Source of the DNA: a virus
Taxonomy: Duplodnaviria > Heunggongvirae > Uroviricota > Caudoviricetes
IMG/VR virus record: IMGVR_UViG_2869965101_000004
DNA length: 52,029 nucleotides
Reading direction: 5' to 3' (one strand)
The stretch's first letter is position 1; each line of letters opens with the position of its first letter. A program made the translations under genes and the position numbers. Positions 1 through 22,617 of the stretch are shown piece by piece. The notes under the pieces were generated by a model. It saw only the letters and a program-made list of their open reading frames with translations. It did no database searches and was not told the DNA's origin.

Positions 1-945
1 TTGAAACGCCGTCTTATTATTGCTGCTTCTTTGTTCGTTTTTAACTTATCGTCTGGTTTTGCGGCGGAAAACATTCCTTTTTCACCTCAGCCTCCAGAGA
101 TTCATGCCGGGTCCTGGGTATTGATGGATTACACCACCGGTCAGATCCTCACCGCGGGTAATGAGCATCAACAGCGCAATCCCGCCAGCCTGACAAAGCT
201 GATGACGGGTTATGTCGTGGATCGCGCTATCGATAGTCATCGCATTACGCCAGACGATATTGTCACCGTGGGGCGCGATGCGTGGGCGAAAGATAATCCG
301 GTGTTTGTCGGTTCTTCACTGATGTTTTTGAAAGAGGGCGATCGCGTATCGGTACGTGATTTAAGCCGTGGTTTAATTGTGGATTCCGGAAATGACGCTT
401 GTGTTGCTCTGGCTGACTATATTGCCGGTGGGCAACGGCAGTTTGTTGAAATGATGAACAACTATGCCGAGAAGCTGCATCTCAAGGATACGCATTTTGA
501 AACAGTGCATGGTCTGGATGCACCTGGCCAGCATAGCTCGGCTTATGATTTAGCTGTGCTTTCTCGTGCTATCATCCACGGCGAGCCCGAGTTTTATCAT
601 ATGTACAGTGGGAAAAGTCTCACCTGGAACGGTATCACCCAGCAAAACCGTAACGGGTTGTTGTGGGATAAAACCATGAATGTTGACGGCCTGAAAACGG
701 GTCATACTTCTGGTGCCGGGTTTAATCTCATTGCTTCGGCTGTAGATGGGCAGCGTCGTCTCATTGCAGTGGTAATGGGGGCTGACAGTGCAAAAGGTCG
801 TGAGGAAGAGGCAAGAAAATTACTGCGTTGGGGGCAACAAAACTTTACTACGGTGCAAATTTTGCACCGTGGGAAAAAGGTCGGAACGGAACGCATCTGG
901 TATGGCGATAAAGAAAATATCGACCTGGGAACGGAACAAGAGTTC
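1..945 (+). pseudogene. dacD: D-alanyl-D-alanine carboxypeptidase DacD (PBP6b), first ~315 codons, truncated by IS1
   Basis: ORF 1..1026 has the SxxK active-site motif (ASLTKLMT) and SGN motif of class-C PBPs; its last 27 residues are read from IS1 sequence starting at 946. Confidence 0.8.
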
Positions 946-960
946 GGTAATGACTCCAAC

Positions 961-1464
961 TTATTGATAGTGTTTTATGTTCAGATAATGCCCGATGACT
1001 TTGTCATGCAGCTCCACCGATTTTGAGAACGACAGCGACTTCCGTCCCAGCCGTGCCAGGTGCTGCCTCAGATTCAGGTTATGCCGCTCAATTCGCTGCG
1101 TATATCGCTTGCTGATTACGTGCAGCTTTCCCTTCAGGCGGGATTCATACAGTGGCCAGCCATCCGTCATCCATATCACCACGTCAAAGGGTGACAGCAA
1201 GCTCATAAGACGCCCCAGCGTCGCCATAGTGCGTTCACCGAATACGTGCGCAACAACCGTCTTCCGGAGCCTGTCATACGCGTAAAACAGCCAGCGCTGG
1301 CGCGATTTAGCCCCGACGTATCCCCACTGTTCGTCCATTTCCGCGCAGACGATGACGTCACTGCCCGGCTGTATGCGCGAGGTTACCGACTGCGGCCTGA
1401 GTTTTTTAAGTGACGTAAAATCGTGTTGAGGCTAACGCCCATAATGCGTGCAGTTGCCCGGCAT
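961..1464 (-). CDS. insB: IS1 InsB (normally made as InsAB' by -1 frameshift)
   Basis: ORF ...[22 protein letters not shown]... in the InsB frame overlapping the insA 3' end. Confidence 0.85.
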
Positions 1465-1658
1465 CCAACGCCATTCATGGCCATATCAATAATTTTCTGG
1501 TGCGTACCGGGTTGAGAAGCGGTGTAAGTGAACTGCAGTTGCCATGTTTTACGGCAGTGAGAGCAGAGATAGCGCTGATGTCCGGCAGTGCTTTTGCCGT
1601 TACGCACCACCCCGTCAGTAGCTGAACAGGAGGGACAGCTGATAGAAACAGAAGCCAC
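1383..1658 (-). CDS. insA: IS1 InsA
   Basis: 91-aa [21 protein letters not shown]... matching IS1 InsA. Confidence 0.9.
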
Positions 1659-1732
1659 TGGAGCACCTCAAAAACACCATCATACACTAAATCAGTAAGT
1701 TGGCAGCATCACCCAAATGCTTTATTCATTCT

Positions 1733-2011
1733 TTACTTCCTTTTTATGGCTCGTAATTTTTTCAGGTGCTTTTCCTGCTCAGTGTCCGCGAGAATTTTGC
1801 GGTACTCCTGGTGGTCAATATGTTCGAACAGGCAGTTTAACTCACCAATGCGTACCCGCCCGGATCGTCCGTCCATCCGTCGAAAGAACACTGAGTGCTC
1901 AGTGATGCGAGTAATCACCACGGGGTATCCAGCTCTGTCCGTGTATATCTGACCGCGTTGAATCAAAGCGAACATGTGGTTATCCCCATCGACAAATCGA
2001 GAACACAACAA
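1733..2011 (-). CDS. hypothetical prophage early-region protein
   Basis: 92-aa ORF on the early-left strand; no family recognised. Confidence 0.35.
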   Translation of the reverse strand: MLCSRFVDGDNHMFALIQRGQIYTDRAGYPVVITRITEHSVFFRRMDGRSGRVRIGELNCLFEHIDHQEYRKILADTEQEKHLKKLRAIKRK

Positions 2012-2059
2012 ACGCTGCTGCGAATACCACCCCCAGAGTTACGATTGCATCAGGCCAGC

Positions 2060-3004
2060 TCATTGATTCACCTCCTGCCTGTCGTCCGGCATTCGCTCAC
2101 TACAGCTTATCCAACCATCCGGAGTTACCGGAACTTGTGGAATGGCTGTCTGCTCTCGAACGTCATTAGGCGCTATAGGTTCTGCTGCCAACTGACTGGC
2201 ATATTTGTTAATGGTAACGATAAGCTCTTGCTCAGCCTCATCCAGACAATCACCGATACCTCGCCTGTCACCGTCAAAATCATCGAAATCGGCACGAATC
2301 CTGGCAACCTTCAGGATTGCGGACAACACCTCACTAGGAATTGCCGGATAGTTGGTTGACGTTTCCGCGATTTCCCGAAAATTATTGGTTGACGAATTCT
2401 TGTTTTCCCGAAAGTTTCCGGACTGAAGCATGGCGGCGCGGCAGGCGTTCCATATTTCGGCAGCAATATCGCGCTCGCTATCGGTTAATTTGTACGTTGA
2501 AACATAGCCAGAGAGCATTTCTACGTTTTCCGGAGTTGCTTCTTCAGGCACTACCGGTGCTGGCTCACGTATTACAGGCTCGCCCATGCGTGATTCTCCC
2601 TGCGCCTCTTTCACCATGTGGTCATTGATTTGCTCCAGTCGCCGAACGTGCTCATCAGCTTCAAGCGCTCGCCGTTTCCAGATGGACAGGTCTTCACGAG
2701 CGCCCTGATATGCGTCACCGTATTCGCCGTTAAATACTGGCGCTGGCGGGGCGATGCGTCCAAGCAACTTATTTACCTCTTTCGCCATCGCGTCATATTT
2801 ATCTAAATAGCGATTAGCTTCTAAGCAGACTCGGTGCATCTGATCTGAGTTAACTCGTTTAACTGGATCTGCTTCCAATGATGCCAGTGCAATCCGTGCC
2901 AGTTCTTCCGCTTCTTCTGCTGGCAGTACAACGTTGCTACCCGGTCCGTATGTTTCGCGCCACTGCTTGATTGTCAGCAGTCGCCCTTTGGTAATAGTGA
3001 TCAT
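2060..3004 (-). CDS. hypothetical prophage early-region protein, C-terminal DUF551-like motif
   Basis: 314-aa ORF ending ...PDGWISCSERMPDD, reminiscent of phage DUF551 proteins; the motif looks cut short. Confidence 0.5.
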   Translation of the reverse strand: MITITKGRLLTIKQWRETYGPGSNVVLPAEEAEELARIALASLEADPVKRVNSDQMHRVCLEANRYLDKYDAMAKEVNKLLGRIAPPAPVFNGEYGDAYQGAREDLSIWKRRALEADEHVRRLEQINDHMVKEAQGESRMGEPVIREPAPVVPEEATPENVEMLSGYVSTYKLTDSERDIAAEIWNACRAAMLQSGNFRENKNSSTNNFREIAETSTNYPAIPSEVLSAILKVARIRADFDDFDGDRRGIGDCLDEAEQELIVTINKYASQLAAEPIAPNDVREQTAIPQVPVTPDGWISCSERMPDDRQEVNQ

Positions 3005-3219
3005 GCCGCGTTTCCTTCTTTCTTATTAACAATCACACCGTCATATATTTCATTAAGGTGCCCTCTCAACTCCATGCGCCTTAATGCAGATAACATGTAA
3101 TCGCATTCAACCTGCTTATTCCCGGTAAATGGCTTATCGTCAGGATTACCCCAACAGCAATTACCCCTGGGCCATCCATGTACTTTCCGTACTCTTCCGT
3201 TAACAACGTGAAGTAATCC
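3001..3219 (-). pseudogene. 3' part of a phage gene interrupted by IS911
   Basis: In frame with the 5' part at 4469..4768 once the 1,249-bp IS911 is removed. Confidence 0.5.
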
Positions 3220-3227
3220 TGAAGTGG

Positions 3228-4396
<1,169 letters not shown>

Positions 4397-4468
4397 TGGA
4401 GCACCAGTGTTGTTCTGAGGTGAGCATATCACCTCTGTTCAGGTGGCCAAATTCAGTGTGCCACTTCA

Positions 4469-4908: not shown

Positions 4909-4950
4909 TGAACCGCCCCGGGTTTCCTGGAGAGTGTTTTATCTGTGAAC

Positions 4951-5841
4951 TCAGGCTGCCAGATCATCGTTTCCGATGGAAGCATAATAAGCTTTTTCTG
5001 CTTCTGCCGGAGGAGTATGGCCCAGCCTTTCCAGCAATCGTCGATTATTATACCAGTCCACCCACGTGAGTGTGGCCAGTTCCACTTCTGCACGGTTTTT
5101 CCAGCTCTTACGGTGTATTACCTCCGCTTTGTAAAGACCATTGATGCTCTCCGCCATCGCGTTGTCATACGAGTCGCCTGTACTTCCTGTTGATGCCAGT
5201 AATCCGGCTTCCTTAAGCCGCTGTGTGTAGGCCAGCGATACATACTGAGAACCTTTATCACTGTGATGGACCGTGCCGGACGGTCGACGGGCCCATAACG
5301 CCTGCTCCAGAGCATCCAGCACGAATGTCGTTTCCATGGACGATGAGACCCGCCACCCCACGATGTATCCGGCAAACACATCAATGATGAACGCCACATA
5401 GACGAAGCCCTGCCATGTGCTGACGTAAGTAAAATCAGCCACCCACAGCTGGTCAGGTCGTTCTGCCACGAACTGACGGTTTACGCGGTCGCCTGCGGCA
5501 ACGGCTTTCCGGCTGATGGTCGTACGGACCTTTTTACCCCGGAGAACACCGGCAAGTCCCATAACCGCCATGAGACGTGCCACAGTGCATCTGGCCACTC
5601 TGATACCTTCCCGTAACAACTGACGCCAGACTTTACGCACACCGTATACCTGATGATTCCCATCGTATACGCGCAGTATCTCTTTCTTCAGCCAGTCATC
5701 GCGCTGCGCACGGGCACTGCGTTTATCAGGATGATGTCGCTGTTGCTGACAGTGGTAATACGTTGACGGGGCAATATGTAGTTCACTGCATACCGGTCCG
5801 ACCCCGTACAGCTTACGCAGCTTATCCAGCAGTGGCATCAC
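4951..5841 (-). CDS. IS629 OrfB transposase
   Basis: 296-aa ORF with IS3-family integrase core. Confidence 0.85.
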
Positions 5842-6164
5842 TTTTTCCAGAGGCGGTCGAACTCCGCCTTCGCAAAATAAGCGGAAGCCTGGCGAAGGAT
5901 ATCGTTACTGCGGCGCAGTTCACGATTTTCACGTTCCAGCTCTTTCAGACGCTGACGTTCAGCGGTGGTGAGCCCGCCATCACCGCCTCCGGTATCCCGC
6001 TCATGCTGGCGTACCCAGACACGCAGAGTCTCCGGTGTACAGCCAATCTTTGGGGCAATGGAACAAATTGCCGCCCACTGTGAGTCATATTCGCCCTGAC
6101 TTTCCAGAACCATACGAATCGCCCTCTGACGGACTTCGGGGGAAAAACGAGTATTTTTAGTCAT
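5838..6164 (-). CDS. IS629 OrfA
   Basis: 108-aa ORF matching IS629 OrfA. Confidence 0.85.
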
Positions 6165-6218
6165 CCTGTTTACCTCTTTCTCAGGGAGTTTAGTCTCCAG
6201 GATTCCCGGGGCGGTTCA

Positions 6219-7857: not shown

Positions 7858-8148
7858 TCAGTTGCCATTTCTTACCTGTTTAAGTAACTGGTTGAACATA
7901 ACACTTAGGGGATTGCTGTATCCAAACGGCAGATTGTTTACGCAGTACAGAATCATTTTGTTTTTTTCTCCAGTTCGTACTATTAACCCATTCCACAATA
8001 ACCGTGATAATTTATTACTGATAGAAGTTGCGCTTCTTCCAAGTGCGAGGGATATATCTTCTCTACTGCAATCTGGATTTTCCTGGATATACTCGATAAC
8101 GGTCATGTGGTCCCTTTTACTTAATATCTGTTTCGGATTGCATGCCAT
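7858..8148 (-). CDS. small winged-helix DNA-binding protein (putative)
   Basis: 96-aa ORF with HTH-like segment REDISLALGRSATSISNKLSRL. Confidence 0.45.
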   Translation of the reverse strand: MACNPKQILSKRDHMTVIEYIQENPDCSREDISLALGRSATSISNKLSRLLWNGLIVRTGEKNKMILYCVNNLPFGYSNPLSVMFNQLLKQVRNGN

Positions 8149-8713
8149 GAGTATTCATTTCGTTAATAATTTCATCCAGAAGGATTTCAAGCCCTTCTCG
8201 ACCCATATCTGAAAGAATGAAACCTTTATCAGGGGAAGTAGTGAGCATTTTCTGATAAAGAAACAGCGCTCTTCCCATTCCTTCAGCTTCGCCGTATTTT
8301 TGAATTAAATTCCATTCAATATACTGTTGTAAGGCAAATCGAATGGGGCCGGGATATATCGTCATAAACCCATACATCCCGTTATATACCACGGCGTGTT
8401 CAGTTGTTCCGTGTTCAGTTGTTCCGTGTTCATTCAGGATATCAATTGTGCCGTTCTTGTCTTCTTCTTCGTTGATGAATGTCGTCACATACAACCATCG
8501 CCACTGAGCAACCTTCATCTCAACCGGAAGTTTACCCAGTAATCCTGCTTCGTCGGCTTGCGCCAGACACTGAAGGATACGTAAACCTCGCACATTAGGA
8601 GTATCGAATTCTCCGGCATCCAGACGACGTATGGCGTCGTGATAATCAATCGTCATACTGCCAGTTCGTATACCATTGGCTGTTGCTTCAGCCTGGAATT
8701 CATCGTATTGCAT
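8117..8713 (-). CDS. hypothetical prophage protein with EHGTT tandem repeat
   Basis: 198-aa ORF; contains a 15-bp tandem DNA repeat at 8396..8432. Confidence 0.45.
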   Translation of the reverse strand: MQYDEFQAEATANGIRTGSMTIDYHDAIRRLDAGEFDTPNVRGLRILQCLAQADEAGLLGKLPVEMKVAQWRWLYVTTFINEEEDKNGTIDILNEHGTTEHGTTEHAVVYNGMYGFMTIYPGPIRFALQQYIEWNLIQKYGEAEGMGRALFLYQKMLTTSPDKGFILSDMGREGLEILLDEIINEMNTHGMQSETDIK

Positions 8714-8718
8714 GATAT

Positions 8719-8913
8719 TTATTCCTCATCTTCATCTTCATCTTCATCTGCTGGTGCAATAACGTCATATCCTGCCTTTTCTGCAATAAACAGGAATGTT
8801 GAAAGAGTTCCTACAAGTTCATCGTCATGAACATGGCGAATGAATATTACTTTCCCGTTTTTGATGGTCAGCAATATTCTGGTTTGTTCGTGTTCTGCTG
8901 TTTTCTGATGCAT
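8719..8913 (-). CDS. hypothetical small protein with acidic tail
   Basis: 64-aa ORF ending ...DEDEDEDEE. Confidence 0.35.
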   Translation of the reverse strand: MHQKTAEHEQTRILLTIKNGKVIFIRHVHDDELVGTLSTFLFIAEKAGYDVIAPADEDEDEDEE

Positions 8914-9087
8914 TATTATCTCCCGTATGCTTTACGCAGAAATAAGCAGGCAATATGCATGTAATTTTCACCGTATTGTGCAATAAGGCAGGCGGTTAGA
9001 CTGGCCCCCTGAATCTCCAGACAACCAGTATCACTTAAATAAGTGATAGTCTTAATACTAGTTTTTAGACTAGTCATTGGAGTACAG

Positions 9088-9453
9088 ATGATTGATGTCT
9101 TAGGGCCGGAGAAACGCAGACGGCGTACCACACAGGAAAAGATCGCAATTGTTCAGCAGAGCTTTGAACCGGGGATGACGGTCTCCCTCGTTGCCCGGCA
9201 ACATGGTGTAGCAGCCAGCCAGTTATTTCTCTGGCGTAAGCAATACCAGGAAGGAAGTCTTACTGCTGTGGCCGCCGGAGAACAGGTTGTTCCTGCCTCT
9301 GAACTTGCTGCCGCCATGAAGCAGATTAAAGAACTCCAGCGCCTGCTCGGCAAGAAAACGATGGAAAATGAACTCCTCAAAGAAGCCGTTGAATATGGAC
9401 GGGCAAAAAAGTGGATAGCGCACGCGCCCTTATTACCCGGGGATGGGGAGTAA
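9088..9453 (+). CDS. insC: IS2 InsC (OrfA)
   Basis: [26 protein letters not shown]... Confidence 0.9.
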
Positions 9454-10316
9454 GCTTAGTCAGCCGTTGTCTCCGGGTGTCGCGTGCGCAGTTGCACGTC
9501 ATTCTCAGACGAACCGATGACTGGATGGATGGCCGCCGCAGTCGTCACACTGATGATACGGATGTGCTTCTCCGTATACACCATGTTATCGGAGAGCTGC
9601 CCACGTATGGTTATCGTCGGGTATGGGCGCTGCTTCGCAGACAGGCAGAACTTGATGGTATGCCTGCGATCAATGCCAAACGTGTTTACCGGATCATGCG
9701 CCAGAATGCCCTGTTGCTTGAGCGAAAACCTGCTGTACCACCATCGAAACGGGCACATACAGGCAGAGTGGCCGTGAAAGAAAGCAATCAGCGATGGTGC
9801 TCTGACGGGTTCGAGTTCTGCTGTGATAACGGAGAGAGACTGCGTGTCACGTTCGCGCTGGACTGCTGTGATCGTGAGGCACTGCACTGGGCGGTGACTA
9901 CCGGCGGCTTCAACAGTGAAACAGTACAGGACGTCATGCTGGGAGCGGTGGAACGCCGCTTCGGCAACGATCTTCCGTCGTCTCCAGTGGAGTGGCTGAC
10001 GGATAATGGTTCATGCTACCGGGCTAATGAAACACGCCAGTTCGCCCGGATGTTGGGACTTGAACCGAAGAACACGGCGGTGCGGAGTCCGGAGAGTAAC
10101 GGAATAGCAGAGAGCTTCGTGAAAACGATAAAGCGTGACTACATCAGTATCATGCCCAAACCAGACGGGTTAACGGCAGCAAAGAACCTTGCAGAGGCGT
10201 TCGAGCATTATAACGAATGGCATCCGCATAGTGCGCTGGGTTATCGCTCGCCACGGGAATATCTGCGGCAGCGGGCTTGTAATGGGTTAAGTGATAACAG
10301 ATGTCTGGAAATATAG
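9411..10316 (+). CDS. insD: IS2 InsD (OrfB transposase)
   Basis: 301-aa ORF with IS3-family DDE core. Confidence 0.9.
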
Positions 10317-10443
10317 GGGCAAATCCAGCGGTCTTGTGTGATGCCATATTCTTTATAAAAGTCACAATAAAGCCTCCTGCGGATTAAGGTTGTAACAATC
10401 CCCGGCGATAAAACCGCAATAAACGTTCAGGGCATATTTGTTG

Positions 10444-10809
10444 TTATTGCGCTAATTCTTTTTCGGCAGCAGCTTTTGTATACTCACATGCAAAACTCAG
10501 AATTTCGCTGCCGAGTGTTTTCGTTTCGTGATTACTGGACATATGTAATACCTGTGTTGCATGCAATAAATGATAAACATTTACCGCAAATGAATCAGGC
10601 TCCAGACAAATGCCTTCGTAATTATCTTGCTGTGAGGTTGTTTCTGTCATTGCTCCTGAAGTGCATGCGAGCCTGTTTTTGACAATTCTCTTTTCTCTAA
10701 TCACTATATCGGCAACATCTATTGCCTTTACAACCTCCGGGAGAAGTTCCGGGTTTGTATAATCAAAGTCATCAACATGGAGAACAGTTATGTTTTCGAA
10801 CTTTTTCAT
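10444..10809 (-). CDS. hypothetical protein in the immunity-region left operon
   Basis: 121-aa ORF downstream of the cI-like gene. Confidence 0.4.
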   Translation of the reverse strand: MKKFENITVLHVDDFDYTNPELLPEVVKAIDVADIVIREKRIVKNRLACTSGAMTETTSQQDNYEGICLEPDSFAVNVYHLLHATQVLHMSSNHETKTLGSEILSFACEYTKAAAEKELAQ

Positions 10810-10937
10810 GGCTTCCTCAGCTGACTTATATGTTCTGCTATATAGCGAGTCTCAGAAGTGTTTTCATATTGAGACTGTTTCCGCAATGATTGATAAAAAT
10901 GTTCGCATGTACCTTGAAGGGCGAAGCGGCGATTATG

Positions 10938-11441
10938 TCACCATTGGTATTGGTTCTTCCGCAGAAGAGCTTCGCGAGATAAGGGGCAAACTTGTTGAGA
11001 TGCGTCATGGTGTTGCTGCTCCTCACTTTTTGGTTGCTCCGGAGGAGTAACCTCACCAGTTAACAGCCACATCGGATCGCAGCCAAGAATATTTGCCAGT
11101 GGGATAAGCATACTGATAGTTGGTTCATACTCTCCGCTCTCCCACTGGATGATAATTTCTTCATCGAGATCGAGCAGCCTGGCGAGTTCGGCGGTTGTTA
11201 AGCCGCAGGCTTCGCGTTGGGTGCGAAGACGGTTGTTGATTGCAGAATTTTTGTTCTGTAAAAGCATTGCTGACGATAGCTTTCTGGATATGCTATTTGT
11301 CATATCCCATGCCAGTCCTGCGCATGACTCTATATCGCTAGAGAGTGTAGCATCAGGTGTTGCTTTTGCTATTAGTGTAATGAGGCTGCCGAGGTTTTTC
11401 AGTTCTTCGAGACAGTCAAGAGTTGTAGCTTTATTGATCAT
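10938..11441 (-). CDS. XRE-family HTH protein with N-terminal extension
   Basis: HTH_XRE-like segment ...LRTQREACGLTTAELARLLDLDEEIIIQWESGEYEPTISMLIPLANILGCDPMWLLTG. Confidence 0.5.
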   Translation of the reverse strand: MINKATTLDCLEELKNLGSLITLIAKATPDATLSSDIESCAGLAWDMTNSISRKLSSAMLLQNKNSAINNRLRTQREACGLTTAELARLLDLDEEIIIQWESGEYEPTISMLIPLANILGCDPMWLLTGEVTPPEQPKSEEQQHHDASQQVCPLSREALLRKNQYQW

Positions 11442-11543
11442 GAGATGATACCTCAGTTACGAACTTTGTTTTATGGTAACTAAGGTGTCAAGGTGTGGCA
11501 AGTGATTTTGATACTTTGGTTTCTTTTTGTGTTTTGTGTCTGG

Positions 11544-12200
11544 TCAGAAAATATCCCACCTGGCATCAACTACAACACCTACTATTTCGCAATCATTGTC
11601 CATTTCTATGATTGGATATTGTGGATTAAGGGGCTTTAGAAACGCCTTTCCCATGTCAGAAATATATTTTTTGAATGTTGCTTCATTGGTGGATTTTTTT
11701 CTGGCGATGACGTAACACCCTGAAAAAACTTCTTTATCTGGGTTGACAAGGATCGACATTCCTTCAGGAAATGTTATTCCTACGGGCGAAGTCATTGAGT
11801 CTCCGTGCACTTCCAGCCAGAACCCCCTCTCACCAGCGTATTTTACAGAATGCCTCCAATTATCCTGATCATACATGTTGTAGTCATCACCAGAAGTTGC
11901 GAATAATCCTGCCTGAACCCAGTTAATTACAGGGTAAGAGTGTGCTGTGTCTCTCTGTGGGCAGCTCTTAACATTATTTTCCCAATGCTTATCTTTTTCA
12001 TCTCCGTTCTGAAGCCACAGCGGTGAACACCGCAGTGCAGCTGCAACTTTAAAAAGGGTGTCACCGTTGAAACTTTTTGTAAGGCCTTGCTCGGCTTTAC
12101 TGATTGCAACTCTGGTGATCCCAGCTTTTTTAGCCAACGCATCTTGTGTTAACCCAGCTTTTTGCCGTGCGTTGATGAGACGTTCACCTAAAGACTTCAT
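11544..12200 (-). CDS. CI-like prophage repressor (HTH plus S24 peptidase domain)
   Basis: N-terminal HTH (GLTQDALAKKAGITRVAISKAEQG) and C-terminal LexA/S24-like domain; probable start MKSLGERL at 12200 with upstream RBS. Confidence 0.8.
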   Translation of the reverse strand: MKSLGERLINARQKAGLTQDALAKKAGITRVAISKAEQGLTKSFNGDTLFKVAAALRCSPLWLQNGDEKDKHWENNVKSCPQRDTAHSYPVINWVQAGLFATSGDDYNMYDQDNWRHSVKYAGERGFWLEVHGDSMTSPVGITFPEGMSILVNPDKEVFSGCYVIARKKSTNEATFKKYISDMGKAFLKPLNPQYPIIEMDNDCEIVGVVVDARWDIF

Positions 12201-12311
12201 TTTTCTTCTCCTCTCATGGCTGTTGATACGAAAGTAACAGAATTTCTTGATACTTTGGAATCCCGCGGTTAACATCGTTGAATAACAAAGTATCTGGTGT
12301 GAGACTAAAGA
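12201..12311. promoter_or_regulatory. divergent immunity-region promoter/operator region (PRM/PR-like)
   Basis: Intergenic region between divergent repressor and rightward genes; palindromes CTGTT-n11-AACAG and GATACTTTG...CAAAGTATC. Confidence 0.4.
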
Positions 12312-12539
12312 ATGACCCTTTATGAAATATTAAAAATTCAATTTAAAACCAATGCCGCTATTGGTCGCAGGTTCCCAAAGAAAGGAAGGCCTCGTGGCAG
12401 TCAAGGTGTTGGAAAGTGGAAAACGCGAGGTGTTCCGGAGGATGTTGCCATTCTTTGTCATCTGGATCCGAGCATTCCATATACACACCCAAGGCTAGCG
12501 AATACAGAAGATGACAAGCCCACAGGAGACCAACAATGA
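12312..12539 (+). CDS. first rightward ORF, possible Cro-like regulator
   Basis: 75-aa ORF in the Cro position; HTH not clearly recognisable. Confidence 0.3.
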   Translation: MTLYEILKIQFKTNAAIGRRFPKKGRPRGSQGVGKWKTRGVPEDVAILCHLDPSIPYTHPRLANTEDDKPTGDQQ

Positions 12540-13243
12540 ACACCGCAATTTTTAACGGCAAAGCATCCATGACCAGCGTTGAGATCGCAGAGCTGGTGGG
12601 AAGCCGACCAGATAGTGTTAAGAGAACTATTGAAACACTGGCTAAAAAGGGAATCATCCAATTTCCACAGACTGTGGAAATTGAGAATAAACAATCACTT
12701 GGGCCTCGCCGATTTTCTAGCGCGTATGTATTCGAAGGTGAACGAGGTAAGCGCGACAGCATCATTGTCGTCGCACAGCTCTGTCCTGAATTCACAGCTC
12801 GCCTGGTAGATCGCTGGCGCGAACTGGAAGAACAGATCCGTAAGCCAATGAGCGAAATCGAAATGGTTGCCGCGATGGCTCTTGAAGCCGTTCGCCAACA
12901 GAAACGGATCACTCAGGTGGAAGAAAAAGTCAGCCACGTTGCTGAAACAGTCGAGCAAATTAAAAAGGGCACTATTCGTGAGGGCTATGCCGGATATCGC
13001 CAACTGAAAGCAAAAACCGGTTTGTCAGATGATAAATGCCGCAATCTGGTGAACGCCTATCAAATTCCTACAGACACCCATGAGTTCATGACGCCGGACA
13101 GATTGTTGTCACGTCGCGCAATTGTTGCTGTGGAACCGTTTATGGCTGCTTTTTATCGGGTTATGGAGGAAGCAGAACCGCGAGGGACTCGCTGGTATCA
13201 CCCGAAAATGGGGTTATTTCAGGTTATTGGTTGGCAGCGGTGA
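12536..13243 (+). CDS. phage regulatory protein (Rha/antirepressor-like N-terminus)
   Basis: N-terminal motif MTSVEIAELVGSRPDSVKRTIETL resembles the Rha/KilA-N type DNA-binding region. Confidence 0.45.
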   Translation: MNTAIFNGKASMTSVEIAELVGSRPDSVKRTIETLAKKGIIQFPQTVEIENKQSLGPRRFSSAYVFEGERGKRDSIIVVAQLCPEFTARLVDRWRELEEQIRKPMSEIEMVAAMALEAVRQQKRITQVEEKVSHVAETVEQIKKGTIREGYAGYRQLKAKTGLSDDKCRNLVNAYQIPTDTHEFMTPDRLLSRRAIVAVEPFMAAFYRVMEEAEPRGTRWYHPKMGLFQVIGWQR

Positions 13244-13648
13244 AAAAAAGCCGGGAGTAACCCGGCTCACTCAACATCAATAACGGGGAGCTGTTTCGCA
13301 TAAAACGGCTCCGAAACATCCAAGAACAGTTCTAAAGATATCAGCAGCTATATGATCATTTCAAGACCAAATATTGATTCTGCAATTTCGGGACGTTACA
13401 CTGTCTCCGCACCTTATAAAGCGGGTGCCGGGATTGGCGTCCTGAAATTCGCACATGCGCATAACCGCGCTTCAGCGGTTTTTTTGCGCACGTTTCCTCA
13501 CATCCAAATTATGGTGGGGCGTGCAGGGGCATCGAAAGATGCGCCGGGGTCATGTGCGACCGGTTACGCCAACCCTGTACGTCTCACCACCTCTGTGATT
13601 GGCGTCCCATGTGGTGAGTTTTCAAAATTCGCACATGAGGATGTCACT

Positions 13649-14200
13649 ATGGCAACCACCCCTACCCAAACTCACCCTAAAATTGATGTTATCCATGGGA
13701 AGGCTGTTACCTCTTCTTTGGCCGTTGCCGAATATTTCTGCAAGCAGCACAAAAACGTTATTCAAAAAATCCAGACGCTTGAGTGCTCTGTTGAATTCAC
13801 TGAGCTGAATTTTCAGCCCAGTGATTACACCGATTGCACAGGCCGCAAACTACCTTGCTATCAAATCACCCGCGATGGCTTCGCGTTCCTTGCTATGGGC
13901 TTTACTGGCAAACGTGCAGCCCGGTTCAAAGAGGCATACATCAACGCCTTTAACCAGATGGAGAAGAATTTATCTGGTGCTGACGCGGTTGATATGTCAG
14001 CTGTCGCACGAAACGCCAGAGGCGTATACCTGCATTTGCGTGAAATCCATCAAATCTGGACAAGCCAGCTTTATCCAATGCTTAAGGCCGTTGAATCTCC
14101 GCTGGCTAGCAAACTGTACGACCGTGTTGGTGATGCTGTTTTTGGCGCTGCACTTGTTGATTCCAGGCTGAATGGTTCTGACAAGGAGGTTCGCCCATGA
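13649..14200 (+). CDS. Rha-family phage regulatory protein
   Basis: Motif ...YQITRDGFAFLAMGFTGKRAARFKEAYINAFNQME characteristic of the phage pRha domain. Confidence 0.65.
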   Translation: MATTPTQTHPKIDVIHGKAVTSSLAVAEYFCKQHKNVIQKIQTLECSVEFTELNFQPSDYTDCTGRKLPCYQITRDGFAFLAMGFTGKRAARFKEAYINAFNQMEKNLSGADAVDMSAVARNARGVYLHLREIHQIWTSQLYPMLKAVESPLASKLYDRVGDAVFGAALVDSRLNGSDKEVRP

Positions 14201-14391
14201 TTAGTTACGAAATCATCATCTCCACTACGGAATACAGAAACGATGTATCAGTTCGCACGGATGTATCTGTCTGGCACCGTCGCTATAAATCCAGAAAAAC
14301 AGCGGAACTGAAAGCGGCAGAGATGTGTGAAACCATCTCAATGAAAGGTAGCCCGGTTAAATACGTAACTACGGTGGAGGTGCGTCCATGA
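14197..14391 (+). CDS. hypothetical protein
   Basis: 64-aa ORF, translationally coupled in the rightward operon. Confidence 0.3.
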   Translation: MISYEIIISTTEYRNDVSVRTDVSVWHRRYKSRKTAELKAAEMCETISMKGSPVKYVTTVEVRP

Positions 14392-14612
14392 TCCGCCACA
14401 TCGTTAATTCCCTGTATCACCGATACAACCGTTGCCCCCGTGTGGGGCAGTGGTTCGCCACCAGCAACGGTCACGTTCTGCGGGTTTGCCTAGTCAACGC
14501 TGAAAGCCAGAAAGTCGTGTGCGAACTACAGGGGCGTAGCTACACCATCAGTTACCCTCTGGCGGTATTTCTGTCTGGAAAAATGTTTAAGCGTCTGGGA
14601 GGTGTGGCGTGA
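14388..14612 (+). CDS. hypothetical protein
   Basis: 74-aa ORF, coupled. Confidence 0.3.
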   Translation: MIRHIVNSLYHRYNRCPRVGQWFATSNGHVLRVCLVNAESQKVVCELQGRSYTISYPLAVFLSGKMFKRLGGVA

Positions 14613-14908
14613 ACTGTTTTCAGTTTGTGTGCGGATGTGCTTTCGATAACCCGATTCAGCGCCTGATTATGTTGCGTGTTTTGATGTCGGGTTCTTCAGA
14701 CGGTGAAGGCGAGAGAGTTATTGATCATCAGGTGCTTGCTGATTTCTGCTGTTGTTCTAAGCAAGCGATATTCAGGGAAACCCTGGCACTGGAAAGAGCT
14801 GGTTATCTTCATATCCGAAAAATTGCAACGCTTACTATTGATGCAAAAGCCAGACTACAACCTGCGCGTGGCTACACAATTCTCATGCCGCGGAAGGAGG
14901 TTGTATGA
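14609..14908 (+). CDS. hypothetical protein
   Basis: 99-aa ORF, coupled to the replication initiator. Confidence 0.35.
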   Translation: MNCFQFVCGCAFDNPIQRLIMLRVLMSGSSDGEGERVIDHQVLADFCCCSKQAIFRETLALERAGYLHIRKIATLTIDAKARLQPARGYTILMPRKEVV

Positions 14909-15896
14909 GCCGTTACGCCCCCACACCGGAAGTTATGGCTATTGGTCAAATTAATATTTCCGGCAATGTTACACCTGCGAACTGGTGGAAATATATTCGA
15001 CTACCCAGTGGGCGTCCGGATGCGACGGCTATCGCTCTGCTTTCAGAGATCGTTTACTGGTACCGCCCGACAGAGGTCAGGGATGAGCACACCGGAGCGT
15101 TGCTGGGATATCGCAAGCGTTTTCAGGGCGACAAACTGCAAAGAAGCTACCAGGCGTTTGCTGAGCAGTTTGGTTTCGGGAAAAGGGAAACCGCAGATGC
15201 GCTGAAGCGTCTGCGCGATGCAGGGTTTATTACTCTGGATTTACGCACGGTGGAAATGCTCGATGGGGTGAAATGCAGCAATATTTTGTTTGTCGGGATC
15301 AACCCACAGGCAATTGCGGCCATCACCACACCTTCTTCTGTTTCGCCAGAAAGTAACAGCAATAATGCAATCAGCGATACAGCTATTACGTTAAAACGGA
15401 ACACCCCCGACGTCATAACGGAACAGGGGATACGCCGAATGTTGATACAAATACAGAGATTACTACAGAGATTACAACGGAGACTAAAAACACTATTGAT
15501 GCATCCGCTGACGCGTCTGCGCCAGCGCGTTCTGCCCGACAGGAATATTCACCGGAATTTGAACAGGCCTGGCAGGAATATCCCAAACGTGCTGGTGGCA
15601 ATTCCAAGTCAGCAGCCTTCAAAGCCTGGAAAGCCCGTATCAGGGAAGGAATAAAACCGGAGACCATGCTTGATGGCGTGAAGCGGTATGCCGCCTGGGT
15701 ACGTGCTACAGGAAATACCGGCACACAGTTCGTGAAGCAGGCTGCGACGTTCTTTGGACCCGATCGTCACTTCGAAGATTACTGGCAACAGCCAGCCGCT
15801 CACGGAGGTGGGCGACAGCGACAGGTTGATGTCCTGGCTGGCCTGGGAGCCATGTCTGACAAATTCGGTAAATCCAGTAACAAATTGACATTCTGA
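14905..15896 (+). pseudogene. phage replication initiator (O-like), frameshifted
   Basis: N-terminal part in frame 1 (14905..~15426), C-terminal part (..FEQAWQEYPKRAGGNSKSAAFKAWKARI..GPDRHFEDYW..) in another frame ending 15896; shift maps to a G4 run at 15426..15429. Confidence 0.55.
15453..15488 (+). repeat. three imperfect 12-bp iteron-like repeats inside the initiator gene (candidate ori)
   Basis: ACAGAGATTACT / ACAGAGATTACA / ACGGAGACTAAA, encoding TEIT-TEIT-TETK. Confidence 0.35.
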
Positions 15897-15897
15897 G

Positions 15898-16785
15898 GTG
15901 ACAGCGATGATGACGATTGACCAACGTGAGAAACAAACAAGACTACAGGCGCGAATGGATGAGTTACGGGCAGAGATTGCATTTGCTCAGAAGGGCGAAA
16001 AGCCATGGCCTTATCGTTCCTGCCTGATGCGTGAAGGTCGCGGATATTGCGAAAAACACGGTAAATATCGTACGCATATACTGGTGTGGAGCGATCGTAA
16101 TGGCGAGGACAGAGAAAAAATTTCATGCTGCCCTGACTGCTTGATCGCTGAGGCCAGTTATTTGACCATGGAACTGTCGTCCCTCAAGGCGGAAGAACTG
16201 ACTGATAACGCCGGAATTGCTCTGCGTTTTCGGGACTGCGAGTTTGATAATTATCTGGAGGTTAATCCTGACGCAGCCAGAAATCTTGCGGCCTGTCGCC
16301 GCTATGCGGAGAACTGGCCAGATATGCTGGAGAACGGTACCAGTCTTGTTATGACCGGCAGTTGCGGTACCGGGAAAAATCATCTGGCGGTATCAATGGC
16401 AAAACACATCATCCGTAACTATCTGGCCAGTGTGGAGATCACCGACGTGATGCGCCTTACCCGGGCTGTGAAAAACTGCTGGCGGAATGACAGTGAAAAA
16501 ACAGCGGATGACGTCATTGAGCATTATGCGTCACTGGATTTGCTGATTGTCGACGAAGTCGGCGTTCAGTTTGGCAGTGCGGCTGAAATGGCCATTTTGC
16601 AGGAAATTATCAATGCCCGGTATGAGGGTATTTTGCCAACTATCTTGATCAGCAATCTTTCACCGGAAGAATTGTGGGCGTTCATCAGTCCCCGGATTGC
16701 CGACAGGATCACCGATGGCGGGCGCAACTGGTTGTCGTTTAACTGGCCCAGCTACCGTTCTCGTATCGGAGGTGTTGCCGCATGA
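15898..16785 (+). CDS. DnaC-like helicase loader (IstB-type AAA+ ATPase)
   Basis: Walker A TGSCGTGKNHLA and Walker B LLIVDEVG. Confidence 0.8.
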   Translation: MTAMMTIDQREKQTRLQARMDELRAEIAFAQKGEKPWPYRSCLMREGRGYCEKHGKYRTHILVWSDRNGEDREKISCCPDCLIAEASYLTMELSSLKAEELTDNAGIALRFRDCEFDNYLEVNPDAARNLAACRRYAENWPDMLENGTSLVMTGSCGTGKNHLAVSMAKHIIRNYLASVEITDVMRLTRAVKNCWRNDSEKTADDVIEHYASLDLLIVDEVGVQFGSAAEMAILQEIINARYEGILPTILISNLSPEELWAFISPRIADRITDGGRNWLSFNWPSYRSRIGGVAA

Positions 16786-18183
16786 CCAGCCAGAACACCC
16801 CGGCATGGCGTAACGATGACCTGGAAGGCGCTGTCATCGGTGCGTTTTTTCTGCGTGGGGCCGATCCGGAAGTGATGGATATTCTGGCCACACTTCCGGC
16901 GGATGTATTTTTTGTGCGTCAGTACCGGGATATTTACGCGGGGATTTGCAGACAGGCTCGCATATCCGGCGTCATTGACCCCGTACTGCTGTGCAATGAG
17001 ATGCCGGAACTTGCCCCGGTGATTACCGACACCGGACGCAAAACCTGGGTGAAGTCTTCACTGGAGCACTATGTCGCAGCGTTGCGGCGCAATGCCGCAC
17101 TGCGCGATGCAGAAAAAACACTGACTGAAGCATTACAGAATTTACGTGATGCGTATACCTGTGAAGCAGCCGAGGATGCCCTGAAGGATGTGCAGAACAT
17201 GATGGCCTCACTGTCGACCGGAAAGGGCGTCATTCAGCCGGTTCACATTGATGATGTCCTTCTGGAAGTGGTCGACCGTGTTGAATGCCGCAATCAGGGA
17301 CTGGAGAAATCCAGGGCGCTGATGACCGGTATTGATGAACTGGACGCAAAAACGGGCGGTATGGAGCCCGGAGACCTGGTATTCATTGCCGCCCGTCCTT
17401 CGATGGGGAAAACCGAACTTGCGCTGGACATCATCGACAAGGTGACTGAGCAGGGGCATGGCGTGCTTCTGTTCACCATGGAGATGGCGAACATCCAGAT
17501 TGGTGAACGTATGGTGTCTGCTGCCGGTGGAATGCCGGTATCCCGTCTTAAGTCTGTTGCCCGTTTTGAAGATGAAGACTGGGCGCGTTTCTCGCAGGGC
17601 GTGGGACGAATGACGGGGCGTAATATCTGGATGGTGGACCAGGCAAACCTGACCCATTGATGAGATATGTGCAACCACGAAGCACCACCGGATGAAACAC
17701 CCGGAAACGGCGCTGGTGGTGGTCGATTACCTCGGCCTGATTAAAACCCGCAGTACGGGGCGTCACGACCTTGCGGTGGGGGAAATCTCAAAGGGACTTA
17801 AAAGCCTGGCAAAATCCGGCGGTTTTCCGCTGATTGCTCTGAGCCAGCTCTCCCGCGGCGTGGAATCCAGACCCAATAAACGCCCAATGAACTCGGACCT
17901 GAAAAACTCCGGGGAAATCGAGGCGGATGCCGACATCATTCTGATGCTTTACAGGGATGAGGTATACAACCCGGAAACTCAGGCCAGAGGCATAGCAGAA
18001 ATCAACATCACGAAACAGCGTAATGGCACGCTCGGGACCATTTACCGGCGTTTTCATAACGGACATTTTCTGCCTGTGGACCAGGAGAGTGCCCGGGTTC
18101 TTTCCACACCCATGACGCCGGGCAATCCGCGCAGATACAGCAATAACCGCATGTCGGGCAGTAAAACGGAGCGTTTATTTTGA
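16782..18183 (+). pseudogene. DnaB-like replicative helicase, frameshifted near 17650
   Basis: N-terminal ORF ends ...DQANLTH* at 17660; DnaB-like continuation [30 protein letters not shown]... is open in the next frame from 17653. Confidence 0.75.
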
Positions 18184-18437
18184 ACAACAGAACAATCACT
18201 GTTTCACCGGAACAACTTCGTCGGCAGGCGCAGGAGATGCTTCGTTGTGCTGAACAGATGGAAAAAACGAGCGTGGCAAAAGATACGCTCCGCAAGCAGC
18301 TTACTCCGGCGCTTCGTGATCTGCTGCAGGCAAAACACCGTACACAAAAGGCGGTGGATGAGCTGGTGGATTGCGTGGCGGAACTGGAAGGCCAGGTAAG
18401 CCAGTTTGAAACGCTGGTGAAGGAGTTTACTGCGTGA
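18180..18437 (+). CDS. hypothetical protein
   Basis: 85-aa ORF. Confidence 0.35.
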
Positions 18438-18482
18438 TGGCTGAATTTTTTCTCCTGCGTTCATGCAATATCGTTCGCTGAG

Positions 18483-19478
18483 GTGACCGTGAGAGCATTG
18501 TTGACTCCTGAAATTGCCCCGCGAATGGGGATTGTATTGTTCAGGCCCGGTTCAGAGCTGATGCCCCTGTTTATGCAGGGGCGTGTCCTGCTGGAGCCTG
18601 AGCCGGAACGTTATTCATCTTTCGCCAGCGGTGCCGTTCCGGCAGCATCACAACCGCTGGCGGATGATCCTGCCGTTCGGGCCGTGTTCCGCCATGAGGC
18701 GGTGATCCGTCGTGCTGGTGGCGTGGAATGCCTTGAGAGCTGGTTACTTCGTGAAAAGGGCTGTCAGTGGCCTCATTCCGACTGGCACAGCGAGAACATG
18801 ACCACAATGCGGCACGCGCCAGGCGCAATCCGTCTGTGCTGGCACTGTGACAATCTTCTCCGTGACCAGTTCACGGAACGGCTGGAATCAATGGCAACGG
18901 ATAACTGTGCCCGCTGGGTGTTGTCTGTTGTGCGTCGGGATCTCGGTTTTGATGACAGTCACGTTGTGACAATGCCGGAACTGTGCTGGTGGCTGATTCG
19001 TAATGACCTGGCGGATGCCTTACCGGAAAGTGCAGCCCGTAAGGCACTGAGATTACCGAAGCCTGTTGTGCCGTCTGTCACCCGGGAAAGTGACCTTGTG
19101 CCTTCGGTTCCTGCCACCAGCATCATCCAGGATAAGGCGAAAAAGGTGCTGGCGCTGAAAGTGGATCCGGAGTCGCCGGAGTCTTTTATGTTACGCCCAA
19201 AACGTCGCCGCTGGGTTAACGAGAAATACACACGCTGGGTGAAGACACAGCCGTGTGCGTGTTGTGGTAAGCCAGCCGACGATCCCCATCACCTGATTGG
19301 TCATGGTCAGGGCTGAATGGGGACAAAATCTCACGATATTTTCACGCTACCGCTGTGTCGGGAGCATCACAACGAGCTTCATGCGGATCCTCTGGCGTTC
19401 GAAGAAAAGCATGGTTCTCAGGTTGATTTAATTTTTCGTTTTCTTGATCACGCCTTTGCAACTGGCGTGCTTGGGTAA
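18483..19478 (+). pseudogene. DUF968-like phage protein with HNH-like C-terminus, in-frame TGA at 19314..19316
   Basis: ...CACCGKPADDPHHLIGHGQG*MGTKSHDIFTLPLCREHHNELH... is one frame with the cysteine/histidine motif split by TGA. Confidence 0.5.
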
Positions 19479-19490
19479 AAGAGGTGACTG

Positions 19491-19865
19491 ATGCTCATAG
19501 ATTTGGTTTTACCTTACCCGCCGACGGTGAACACTTACTGGCGACGCCGTGGCAGCACATATTTTATCTCGGAGGAGGGAAAGCGTTATCGCCGGGCTGT
19601 GGCGCTTATTGTTCGCCAGCAGCGGCTGAAATTAAGCCTGTCCGGAAGGCTGGCGATAAAGGTGATTGCAGAGCCACCGGATAAGCGTCGTCGCGACCTG
19701 GACAATATCCTGAAAGCACCGCTGGATGCGCTGACGCATGCGGGAGTGTTAATGGACGATGAGCAGTTTGATGAAATCAATATCGTTCGTGGTCAGCCAG
19801 TATCTGGTGGACGTATGGGGGTGAAGATTTACCCCATAATGCATGAAGAGCAGGTCAAAAAATGA
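19491..19865 (+). CDS. rusA: RusA-family Holliday junction resolvase
   Basis: ...DKRRRDLDNILKAPLDALTHAGVLMDDEQ... RusA catalytic motif. Confidence 0.85.
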   Translation: MLIDLVLPYPPTVNTYWRRRGSTYFISEEGKRYRRAVALIVRQQRLKLSLSGRLAIKVIAEPPDKRRRDLDNILKAPLDALTHAGVLMDDEQFDEINIVRGQPVSGGRMGVKIYPIMHEEQVKK

Positions 19866-20683
19866 AACTGGAAGATTTACCGAAATACTACTCCCCAAAA
19901 TCCCCTAGCCTGACCGATGCATCGGCCTCAACGTCAAAAGATGCGCTGAGTATCACTGATGTGATGGCCGCGCAGGGCATGACACAGAATCGGGCTGAGA
20001 TGGGGTTTTCTGCGTTCCTGGGGAAAATGGGCATCAGTATGAATGACAGGGCGCGGGCAACAGAATTACTGGCAGATTATGCACTCAGTCGGTGCGATCG
20101 TGTGGCGGCGTTGAGAAAACTTCCGGCAGAAATAAAACCGGTAGTGATGCGCATTATGGCTTCGTATGCGTTTGAAGATTATGCCCGTAGCGCGGCGAGC
20201 AAAAAACAGTGCCCCTGCTGTCACGGAAAAAAATTTATTGAAAGCGAGGTTTTTACAAACAAGATCCAGTATCCGGATGGTAAGCCACCAGTGTGGGCAA
20301 AGTGCACAAAAGGCGTGTATCCGTCTTACTGGGAAGAATGGAAAAAAGTCAGGGAGGTGGTAAAAGTTGCCTGTCCGGAGTGTGGCGGAAAGGGTGAGGT
20401 TTCCACCGCCTGTAAGGATTGCCGTGGGCGTGGTGTCGCCATTCATCGTGAAGAGTCGGTAAAACGTGGTATGCCTGTTATCAGAGACTGCCAGCGTTGT
20501 GGTGGTCGTGGCTGTGAAAGACTACCATCAACGGAGGCATTTAATGCCATATGCAAAGTGACGAGTGCTATCACGCTTGATACGTGGAAAAAATCAGTGA
20601 AACGCTTTTACGATACGTTGGTGGTTCGGTTTGACATTGAAGAGGCATGGGCGGAGCGGCAGTTAAAGAGGGTAACGCGATAG
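19862..20683 (+). CDS. late-gene antiterminator Q-like protein
   Basis: Position upstream of the late promoter region; multiple CxxC zinc-finger motifs. Confidence 0.65.
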   Translation: MKLEDLPKYYSPKSPSLTDASASTSKDALSITDVMAAQGMTQNRAEMGFSAFLGKMGISMNDRARATELLADYALSRCDRVAALRKLPAEIKPVVMRIMASYAFEDYARSAASKKQCPCCHGKKFIESEVFTNKIQYPDGKPPVWAKCTKGVYPSYWEEWKKVREVVKVACPECGGKGEVSTACKDCRGRGVAIHREESVKRGMPVIRDCQRCGGRGCERLPSTEAFNAICKVTSAITLDTWKKSVKRFYDTLVVRFDIEEAWAERQLKRVTR

Positions 20684-20688
20684 TGTTG

Positions 20689-20735
20689 TTGATTTTTCCC
20701 GAATCTGTGGTAAATTTGCTCTAATGATGGGCGTT
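20689..20735 (+). promoter_or_regulatory. candidate late promoter (PR'-like) and Q-utilisation region
   Basis: TTGATT (20689) and TAAATT about 17 bp downstream, directly after Q. Confidence 0.3.
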
Positions 20736-20764
20736 TTATGCCTGACGTTAGAAGATTTTTTACA

Positions 20765-20789
20765 CCCCGCCGCCTGGCGGGTTTTTTAT
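20765..20789 (+). terminator. intrinsic terminator (tR'-like)
   Basis: CCCGCC-GCCT-GGCGGG hairpin followed by TTTTTT. Confidence 0.5.
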
Positions 20790-20909
20790 GACTGAAATCG
20801 CGTCAGTACAGTAAACGCGCTGGTGGCGGTGAATACCTGTCTTTCAGCTTGCTGGCTTTTTCGACAAGAGTTATTGGTGTGTCACGTTAACCGGAAAAGG
20901 GAAAAAGAC

Positions 20910-21107
20910 ATGCTAAAACAGCAGGATATGACAGAAACCGCCAGAGTGGTGTTTAATGAATTAAGCGTTACCGAACCGGCGACAGTCGGGGAGATAGCGC
21001 AGAATACTTACCTTTCACGCGAACGCTGCCAGTTAATACTGACCCAGCTGGTTATGGCGGGTCTGGCAGACTATCAGTTCGGTTGTTACAGACGCCTTCC
21101 GCAGTGA
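20910..21107 (+). CDS. hypothetical small protein
   Basis: 66-aa ORF from ATG 20910 with RBS. Confidence 0.3.
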   Translation: MLKQQDMTETARVVFNELSVTEPATVGEIAQNTYLSRERCQLILTQLVMAGLADYQFGCYRRLPQ

Positions 21108-21257
21108 AGGCTTTTTTATTTGTGGTAAATGGGCGGCTGGTGGGTGTTAGGGGCACCCACCAGCCATCTGCTCATGCGTTGGGTTCACAAGCAAACCTCA
21201 GGCCCACTGCTTTGCGCAAAAGCAGAATGAGCCTATCAGAGACAGGCTTAATGATCC

Positions 21258-22307: not shown

Positions 22308-22356
22308 AACGGATGAGATTGCAGAATTAATTACGCACCATTATTATTCTGCTCCC

Positions 22357-22432
22357 GGCCCTTTAGCTCAGTGGTGAGAGCGAGCGACTCATAATCGCCA
22401 GGTCGCTGGTTCAAATCCAGCAAGGGCCACCA
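22357..22432 (+). tRNA. tRNA-Ile2 (anticodon CAU, lysidine-type; ileZ-like)
   Basis: Cloverleaf by eye: acceptor GGCCCTT/AAGGGCC, anticodon loop CTCATAA, T-loop TTCAAAT, encoded CCA. Confidence 0.8.
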
Positions 22433-22439
22433 TCACATA

Positions 22440-22513: not shown

Positions 22514-22529
22514 TCATTATCTGTATCCT

Positions 22530-22606: not shown

Positions 22607-22617
22607 CACTTATTTTC

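Follow-up and report, generated by a model that had tools for sequence, protein, structure and literature searches.

We analyzed a stretch of DNA of 52,029 nucleotides (nt), hereafter the window, taken from the virus record IMGVR_UViG_2869965101_000004 of IMG/VR (Duplodnaviria; Heunggongvirae; Uroviricota; Caudoviricetes), in which a single copy of the insertion sequence (IS) IS1 joins the 5′ part of the host gene dacD to the left edge of a prophage. Comparison with sister genomes of Shigella boydii indicates that this IS1 is very probably the lone copy left by recombination between two directly repeated copies, designated IS1a and IS1b below. The junctions of both parental copies are preserved in the sister genomes, and the window differs from their arrangement by exactly the interval between the two copies plus one IS1.

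Precursor arrangement in sister Shigella boydii genomes

Over 11,026 bases, the window matches the S. boydii chromosome CP026762.1 (GCA_002949175.1) at 100% identity, and it maps to positions 790332-842360 of that record. Ten sister records, namely CP026795.1 (S. boydii ATCC BAA-1247), CP001063.1 (S. boydii CDC 3083-94), CP026797.1, CP026866.1, CP026867.1, CP026872.1, PTES01000001.1, UAUR01000007.1, AMKA01000044.1, and AMKD01000045.1, have two IS1 copies at this locus, on the same strand and 7,776 bp apart from start to start. IS1a interrupts dacD after nt 945 and is bordered by a perfect duplication of CAAGAGTTC, beyond which dacD resumes (sister loci L005-L008); in sister locus L007, nt 937-1167 of dacD restart at 11714. 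The order of genes 3′ of IS1a is the remainder of dacD (a 72-amino-acid [aa] fragment with the PBP5_C domain), sbmC, yeeA split by an IS110 family element, tmaR, a remnant of CP4-44, and ISSso6, followed by a 179-aa fragment of mlrA, ~560 bp containing attL and the 3′ end of int, IS1b, the gene of a DUF4222 protein, and the remaining prophage.

Alignment with L007, in which IS1a starts at 10946 and IS1b at 18722, gives the size of the deletion to the base. Positions 1-1716 of the window correspond to 10001-11716 of this locus, and positions 946-3250 correspond to 18722-21026, the offset changing from 10,000 to 17,776; that is, the window is the sister arrangement minus exactly 7,776 bp, comprising 7,008 bp of unique DNA and one 768-bp IS1. 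On its left the window element is flanked as IS1a is, and on its right as IS1b is, a combination that points to a deletion by recombination between direct IS1 repeats. Of the features expected of a recombinant IS, three are found here: both parents are present in relatives in the same orientation with the DNA between them, both outer flanks are kept, and the length difference equals the interval together with one IS copy. An exchange between IS1a and IS1b explains both why there is no target duplication and why dacD does not resume. The segment between the two copies in the sister genomes is not in the window, ISSso6 copies excepted. Neither junction is present among 5,426 complete Escherichia coli genomes, and the precursor is therefore specific to this S. 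boydii lineage.

The original prediction, made from the letters of the window, had named two mechanisms for the junction, IS1-IS1 recombination and IS1-mediated adjacent deletion. The former is borne out by the two directly repeated parents in the sister genomes, and the latter is very unlikely for the dacD junction, though it may apply to an older loss at IS1b (see below). The same prediction was right that the prophage left end and the 3′ part of dacD are gone. Its picture of a single event gives way to two steps, of which the loss of xis and the 5′ part of int came earlier and is clade-wide. The comparison with related genomes that it had called for has now defined the deleted segment, which runs from the 3′ part of dacD to the truncated int.

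Proposed course of events

On the basis of these observations, we propose the following series of steps. IS1a would have entered dacD behind nt 945, with duplication of CAAGAGTTC; IS1b would already have stood, or come to stand, 7,776 bp downstream with the orientation of IS1a, at the left edge of a lambdoid prophage integrated in mlrA. In an older step, common to the whole clade, IS1b would have replaced 1,186 bp comprising the 5′ part of int, xis, and most of a small open reading frame (ORF). A strain-specific exchange between IS1a and IS1b would then have removed one IS1 and 7,008 bp, carrying away the dacD 3′ part, sbmC, the split yeeA, tmaR, the CP4-44 remnant, ISSso6, the truncated mlrA, attL, and the last 526 bp of int. 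This exchange was probably homologous recombination of the RecA type or, alternatively, single-strand annealing after a break.

The window IS1 matches IS1b of CP026795.1 and PTES01000001.1 at 768 of 768 positions, and the sole marker that bears on the crossover site is position 84 of the element. No switch from one parental type to the other is visible within the window IS1. IS1a has A at this position in two of the sister genomes (CP026867.1 and CP026872.1), so that this marker does not place the crossover. A second variable site lies in the insB frame, where a 9-mer, CCGTCCCAG, is single in the window (positions 1042-1050). In CP026866.1 it is doubled in both IS1a and IS1b, which also have a single-nucleotide polymorphism (SNP) in common, and this sharing suggests that the two IS1 copies of the locus exchange sequence.

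As a separate observation, the IS1b of CP026867.1 has ~14 tandem occurrences of the same 9-mer, giving an IS1 of 885 bp. This reflects either a sequencing artifact or a repeat of variable number, in frame, within the transposase gene; in the latter case, the sister genomes could encode an IS1 transposase of variable length.

Three points weigh against the recombination of IS1a with IS1b. The deletion junction is found in one assembly only. The window IS1 is IS1b-like throughout, unlike most IS1a copies at position 84; if the parental IS1a had G at that position, the crossover would have to lie within the first 83 bp beside dacD, which is ~11% of the IS1. Finally, the absence of the segment from elsewhere in CP026762.1 rests on one look-up of an indexed protein rather than a genome-wide search.

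Alternative explanations

The first of these points raises the prospect of an assembly artifact, in which the isolate has the two-IS1 arrangement and the assembler merged the IS1 copies, dropping 7 kb. IS-rich Shigella genomes are hard to assemble, and the single assembly with the junction is listed under two samples. Against this, a 768-bp repeat is short compared with the multikilobase repeats that were resolved in the same chromosome-scale record, such as the 4-kb inverted IS66/ISSso6 repeat at 29467-39493, and no orphan contig of 5-20 kb with the truncated MlrA is indexed. We accordingly regard an artifact as improbable.

The segment might instead have been relocated, with the 7.8-kb block reentering the chromosome or a plasmid as an IS1-bearing circle or being moved by successive IS1 inversions. 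Shigella genomes have many IS1 copies and undergo frequent IS-mediated rearrangement (PMC8072062, PMC7373316), and in CP026814.1 this prophage lies inverted between a pair of ISSso6 copies. The total lengths of CP026762.1 and CP026795.1 differ by only 59 bp, as would be expected if nothing had been lost. However, they belong to different strains, as the 10.9 kb upstream differs at 74 sites, every one of them in the his-plaP part, and the similar length is therefore coincidental; a candidate explanation in which the two records are one strain in a rearranged state was ruled out by the same differences. There are not enough flanking SNPs to tell which sister strain is closest. When the 179-aa truncated MlrA was looked up by exact match in a protein index, 11 chromosome-scale contigs were returned; CP026762.1 is absent from the 8 identified by accession. 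The neighborhoods of the other 3 resemble those of CP026814.1 or CP026797.1, which the structure of the window excludes for this genome. Since CP026762.1 is absent from the accessions identified and the two strains differ at 74 his-plaP sites, we regard the segment as lost, and relocation as very improbable. The scenario by which the original prediction could have been overturned, with the missing part lying elsewhere in the genome after a simple inversion, accordingly finds no support in the MlrA look-up, a negative result from an index and not from a search of the whole genome. A search of the literature found no paper on CP026762.

A bolder version of the exchange would make it an active and recurrent process rather than a one-off scar, either because the 7.8-kb block is a Tn9-like translocatable unit or because its loss was selected, sbmC or tmaR being costly. 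If the former were true, the IS1-bearing circle would reinsert elsewhere with sbmC, tmaR, attL, and the int remnant. We give this idea very little credence.

The least probable explanation is a transposase-driven adjacent deletion, in which one IS1 transposes intramolecularly to the outer boundary of the other, with no homologous exchange. Adjacent deletions by IS1 were reportedly described by Reif and Saedler in 1975 in the gal region. The window element encodes intact InsA and InsAB′, its A at position 84 is as expected if IS1b survived, and the older 1,186-bp loss at IS1b may be of this kind, since adjacent deletions keep one flank and abut new DNA to the element without a duplication. At the dacD end, however, the new joint is, to the base, the preexisting junction of dacD with IS1a in every sister genome; a transposition would have had to target that single phosphodiester bond, which is very unlikely, and the coincidence with an existing IS1 boundary points to exchange between IS copies. 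Moreover, 768 bp of direct homology makes homologous exchange far more likely, and position 84 is polymorphic in IS1a.

Older steps at the locus

Sequence comparison indicates that the prophage was originally integrated in mlrA and not beside dacD. The mlrA-attL-int junction of the sister genomes (17606-18721 of L007) is 99.6% identical to that of E. coli 582 and ~99% identical to those of other mlrA lysogens, including O55:H7. In E. coli 582 (locus L011), the order is mlrA, int (1,287 bp), xisR, a 44-codon ORF, and the DUF4222 gene. IS1b stands in place of positions 10117-11302 of that locus, a loss of 1,186 bp that is found clade-wide and comprises the first 761 bp of int, the whole of xisR, and the 44-codon ORF except for its first 16 nt. 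The sister genomes retain the truncated mlrA with attL and the last 526 bp of int, without xis. IS1b is flanked by TTCCTACGG and CAAATGCTT, i.e., it has no target duplication, and the 1,186-bp loss therefore came about either by adjacent deletion at an IS1 or through a previous exchange between two IS1 copies.

The arrangement in E. coli points to a further event. There, sbmC, yeeA, tmaR, and CP4-44 come after dacD, and yohO and yehW lie on either side of mlrA. Within the S. boydii clade, the CP4-44 remnant meets the 3′-truncated mlrA at an ISSso6, and an earlier rearrangement associated with ISSso6 therefore placed the prophage within 7 kb of dacD.

Another origin was considered and rejected. 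The best E. coli match of window positions 1714-3200, in STEC17-183, whose prophage lies at yecE, had suggested integration at yecE followed by a deletion from dacD to yecE, a reading that was dropped because the sister genomes place the prophage next to the truncated mlrA. A direct deletion of that kind would span ~130 kb on the K-12 map, including the essential genes argS and pgsA.

The locus has also been rearranged in CP026814.1, where the prophage segment is inverted between two inverted ISSso6 copies, such that tmaR-ISSso6 adjoins the lysis genes and the truncated mlrA with its ISSso6 adjoins other DNA. Here IS elements have rearranged the locus a second time, independently.

Relation to known systems

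In transposons of the Tn9 type, segments bracketed by IS1 resolve to a single IS1 by recombination between the direct repeats. The dacD junction resembles such a collapse in its direct IS1 pair, in the loss of the interval together with one copy, in the retention of the outer flanks, and in the lack of a matching duplication. Unlike in Tn9, the bracketed DNA, from the 3′ part of dacD to the truncated int, is a chance stretch of the chromosome and not a mobile resistance module, and it shows no sign of having moved as a single transposing unit.

One recognized route of gene loss in Shigella is deletion between homologous copies of an IS, and the part of IS activity in past deletions is difficult to establish (Hawkey et al. 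2020, PMC7373316). The reduction of Shigella genomes by IS elements has also been treated by Seferbekova et al. (2021, PMC8072062) and, for the plasmid pINV, by Pilla et al. (2017, PMC5629016). The present locus follows this pattern in that genes were first interrupted by IS elements and then deleted between homologous copies, and here attribution to exchange between IS copies is direct because the precursor survives in sister genomes. Most of the lost genes (dacD, yeeA, mlrA, and int) had already been inactivated, and with them went sbmC (157 aa) and tmaR (109 aa), both apparently intact, so that the strain now has neither. There is nothing new in the mechanism, which is already known and amounts to textbook IS-mediated genome reduction. 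The locus is a clean, fully documented case of stepwise decay, with all of its stages present in public genomes, from the intact left end in mlrA (E. coli) through the IS1-truncated state of the clade to the final deletion in one strain. For annotators, an IS with nonmatching flanks marks a deletion or rearrangement, and the genes that it adjoins, here dacD and those of the prophage, need not have been each other's insertion site.

The prophage itself is closest to lambdoid prophages at mlrA (yehV), such as those of E. coli 582, MS 196-1, and O55:H7 RM12579, to which the sister junction is 99-99.6% identical and which have the same order of int, xis, the 44-codon ORF, and the DUF4222 gene. Its early and late regions are ~92-95% identical, over part of their length, to Stx2-converting phages. 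The Stx1 prophages of O157:H7 use the same mlrA site. In contrast to these mlrA prophages, the window version is without attL, int, and xis, is truncated at the right end, is interrupted by several IS elements, and has no stx gene that could be found with Stx1 or Stx2 peptides.

The IS1 element and its surroundings

The features on which the above analysis depends are collected in Table 1.

Table 1. Coordinates of features in the window
Feature	Position	Strand	Remarks	Basis
dacD, 5′ part	1..945	+	codons 1-315 of 388	alignment, NCBIfam profile
Left 9-mer, CAAGAGTTC	937..945		left copy of the IS1a target duplication in dacD; right copy deleted here	
IS1	946..1713	-	complete, 768 bp; right inverted repeat (IRR) end at 946, left inverted repeat (IRL) end at 1713	repeats, ORFs, profile match
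insB′ frame	961..1409	-	from frameshift motif to stop; part of open InsAB′ fusion	
IS1 position 84	1029		A here, as in all IS1b copies; G in IS1a except at two of the examined sister loci	
insA	1383..1658	-	91 aa, intact, GTG start	ORF list
Right 9-mer, CAAATGCTT	1714..1722		right flank inherited from IS1b; differs from the window left flank and from TTCCTACGG	
44-codon phage ORF, first 16 nt	1714..1729	-	ATG AAT AAA GCA TTT G	E. coli 582 comparison
DUF4222 family gene	1733..1975	-	80 aa, first intact prophage gene	
Second prophage gene	2060..3004	-	314 aa; E. coli relatives annotated as DUF551 domain-containing or hypothetical	
Q antiterminator	19862-20683			
DNA methylase	21258-22307			
nanS-p-like esterase	23478-25358			

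The element is an ordinary IS1. Its ends, GGTAATGACTCCAACTTATTGAT and GGTGATGCTGCCAACTTACTGAT, pair at 18 of 23 inverted-repeat positions. The Pfam domains PF03811 and PF12759 match the product of an identical insA gene in locus L004. The slippery motif TTAAAAAAC (A6C, -1 frameshift) lies at 1409-1401, and a -1 shift is predicted from the sequence to give an open InsAB′ fusion of 232 aa; the NCBIfam equivalog for the IS1 transposase matches this fusion with 246.6 bits (cut-off, 100). In its free-standing form, insB contains a TAG at 1439-1441 (minus strand), upstream of the slippery site, where the K-12 IS1 has a tryptophan codon, and the annotated insB is shortened to 125 aa; this TAG is outside the fusion frame and leaves InsAB′ unaffected. 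The two flanking 9-mers, CAAGAGTTC and CAAATGCTT, have the same base at only 5 of 9 positions and thus do not form a 9-bp target duplication. Such mismatched flanks are no argument against its identity as IS1; rather, the window copy is not a simple insertion.

The dacD part can be aligned, with no gap and 97.4% identity, to nt 1-945 of an intact E. coli dacD of 1,167 nt, and its product matches positions 2-316 of the 389 in the NCBIfam DacD equivalog profile with 699 bits (cut-off, 610). The frame stays open into IS1, where it stops at 1024-1026, and encodes a product of 341 aa that lacks the PBP5_C domain and does not match the equivalog over its full length; this domain (PF07943) is on the separate 72-aa 3′ fragment, which is present only in the sister genomes. 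The window dacD is thus a pseudogene of DacD (PBP6b, a serine-type D-Ala-D-Ala carboxypeptidase). An exact look-up of the 341-aa read-through product returned 24 contigs; in a second look-up, 30 contigs carried this product, which goes under the name Shigella boydii DacD (NCBI, UniRef). Other IS1 insertions near dacD have occurred independently: in E. coli S931B, an IS1 truncates dacD at ~nt 1047 and unrelated DNA follows, and in E. coli O25:NM 2014EL-1343-2, an IS1 lies in the intergenic region between sbcB and dacD.

Prophage DNA starts at 1714, and window positions 1714-3219 are 100% identical to the prophage of E. coli STEC17-183. Window position 1714 corresponds to 11303 of L011, where the 44-codon ORF is annotated at 11184-11318; in intact relatives this ORF lies between xis and the DUF4222 gene, and here it was cut by the older IS1b-associated deletion of 1,186 bp. 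The 314-aa protein encoded by the second prophage gene has no NCBIfam match.

Most of what the original prediction had read from this region proved accurate. The IS1 is indeed complete, with 768 bp and flanks that do not match. dacD is intact up to 945 and does not resume after the IS1, nt 946-1167 not being found in the first 5 kb of the window. The prediction that int, xis, and attL are missing on the left agrees with tblastn searches of the window with Int, Xis, and MlrA of an intact relative, in which nothing better than E = 0.05 was retrieved. A prophage gene does follow directly past the IS1, with a gap of 19 bp in place of the 20 bp given earlier; all of the remaining coordinates were upheld.

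Remainder of the prophage

The prophage is also deleted at its right end. Two copies of an IS3 family element, which we take from its OrfA sequence to be IS911-like, lie at 3220-4467 and 51368-52029. The first (1,248 bp) breaks the early left region relative to E. coli prophages, and the second interrupts the tape-measure gene at aa 454 out of 859. Past the second copy, CP026762.1 has a 22-aa remnant of a tail fiber assembly gene and then a host ABC permease gene. The cut tape-measure gene, this remnant, and the adjoining host gene together point to a right-end deletion; a complete right end would have the tail genes, attR, and the rest of mlrA. As the left end likewise lacks the attL, int, and xis of an excisable prophage, and the right end is lost, the prophage cannot excise.

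Positions 8140-24620 of the window are 92-94% identical, over part of their length, to Stx2a-converting phages. No stx genes were found in the window with Stx1A, Stx1B, and Stx2A peptides, a weak negative result. An exact look-up of the terminase ORF gave no record, probably owing to the choice of start codon. The stretch similar to Stx2a-converting phages is laid out in the usual way, with the Q antiterminator, DNA methylase, PmrD-like gene, nanS-p-like esterase, and lysis cassette.

A large inverted structure occupies 29467-39493, in which 29467-33492, composed of ISSso6 and an IS66 family element, pairs with 39493-34202 at 99.9% identity. Its center of 709 bp holds an inverted fragment of Nu1 (small terminase), and the second arm has an extra IS3 family insertion of 1,257 bp. 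The structure is probably real because a similar one is present in S. boydii CDC 3083-94 (CP001063.1). Two other IS3 family insertions lie in the early region, at 4909-6218 (transposase ORFs of 108 and 296 aa) and 9043-10316 (136 and 301 aa); by sequence these look like IS629 and IS2, and their presence varies among the sister genomes.

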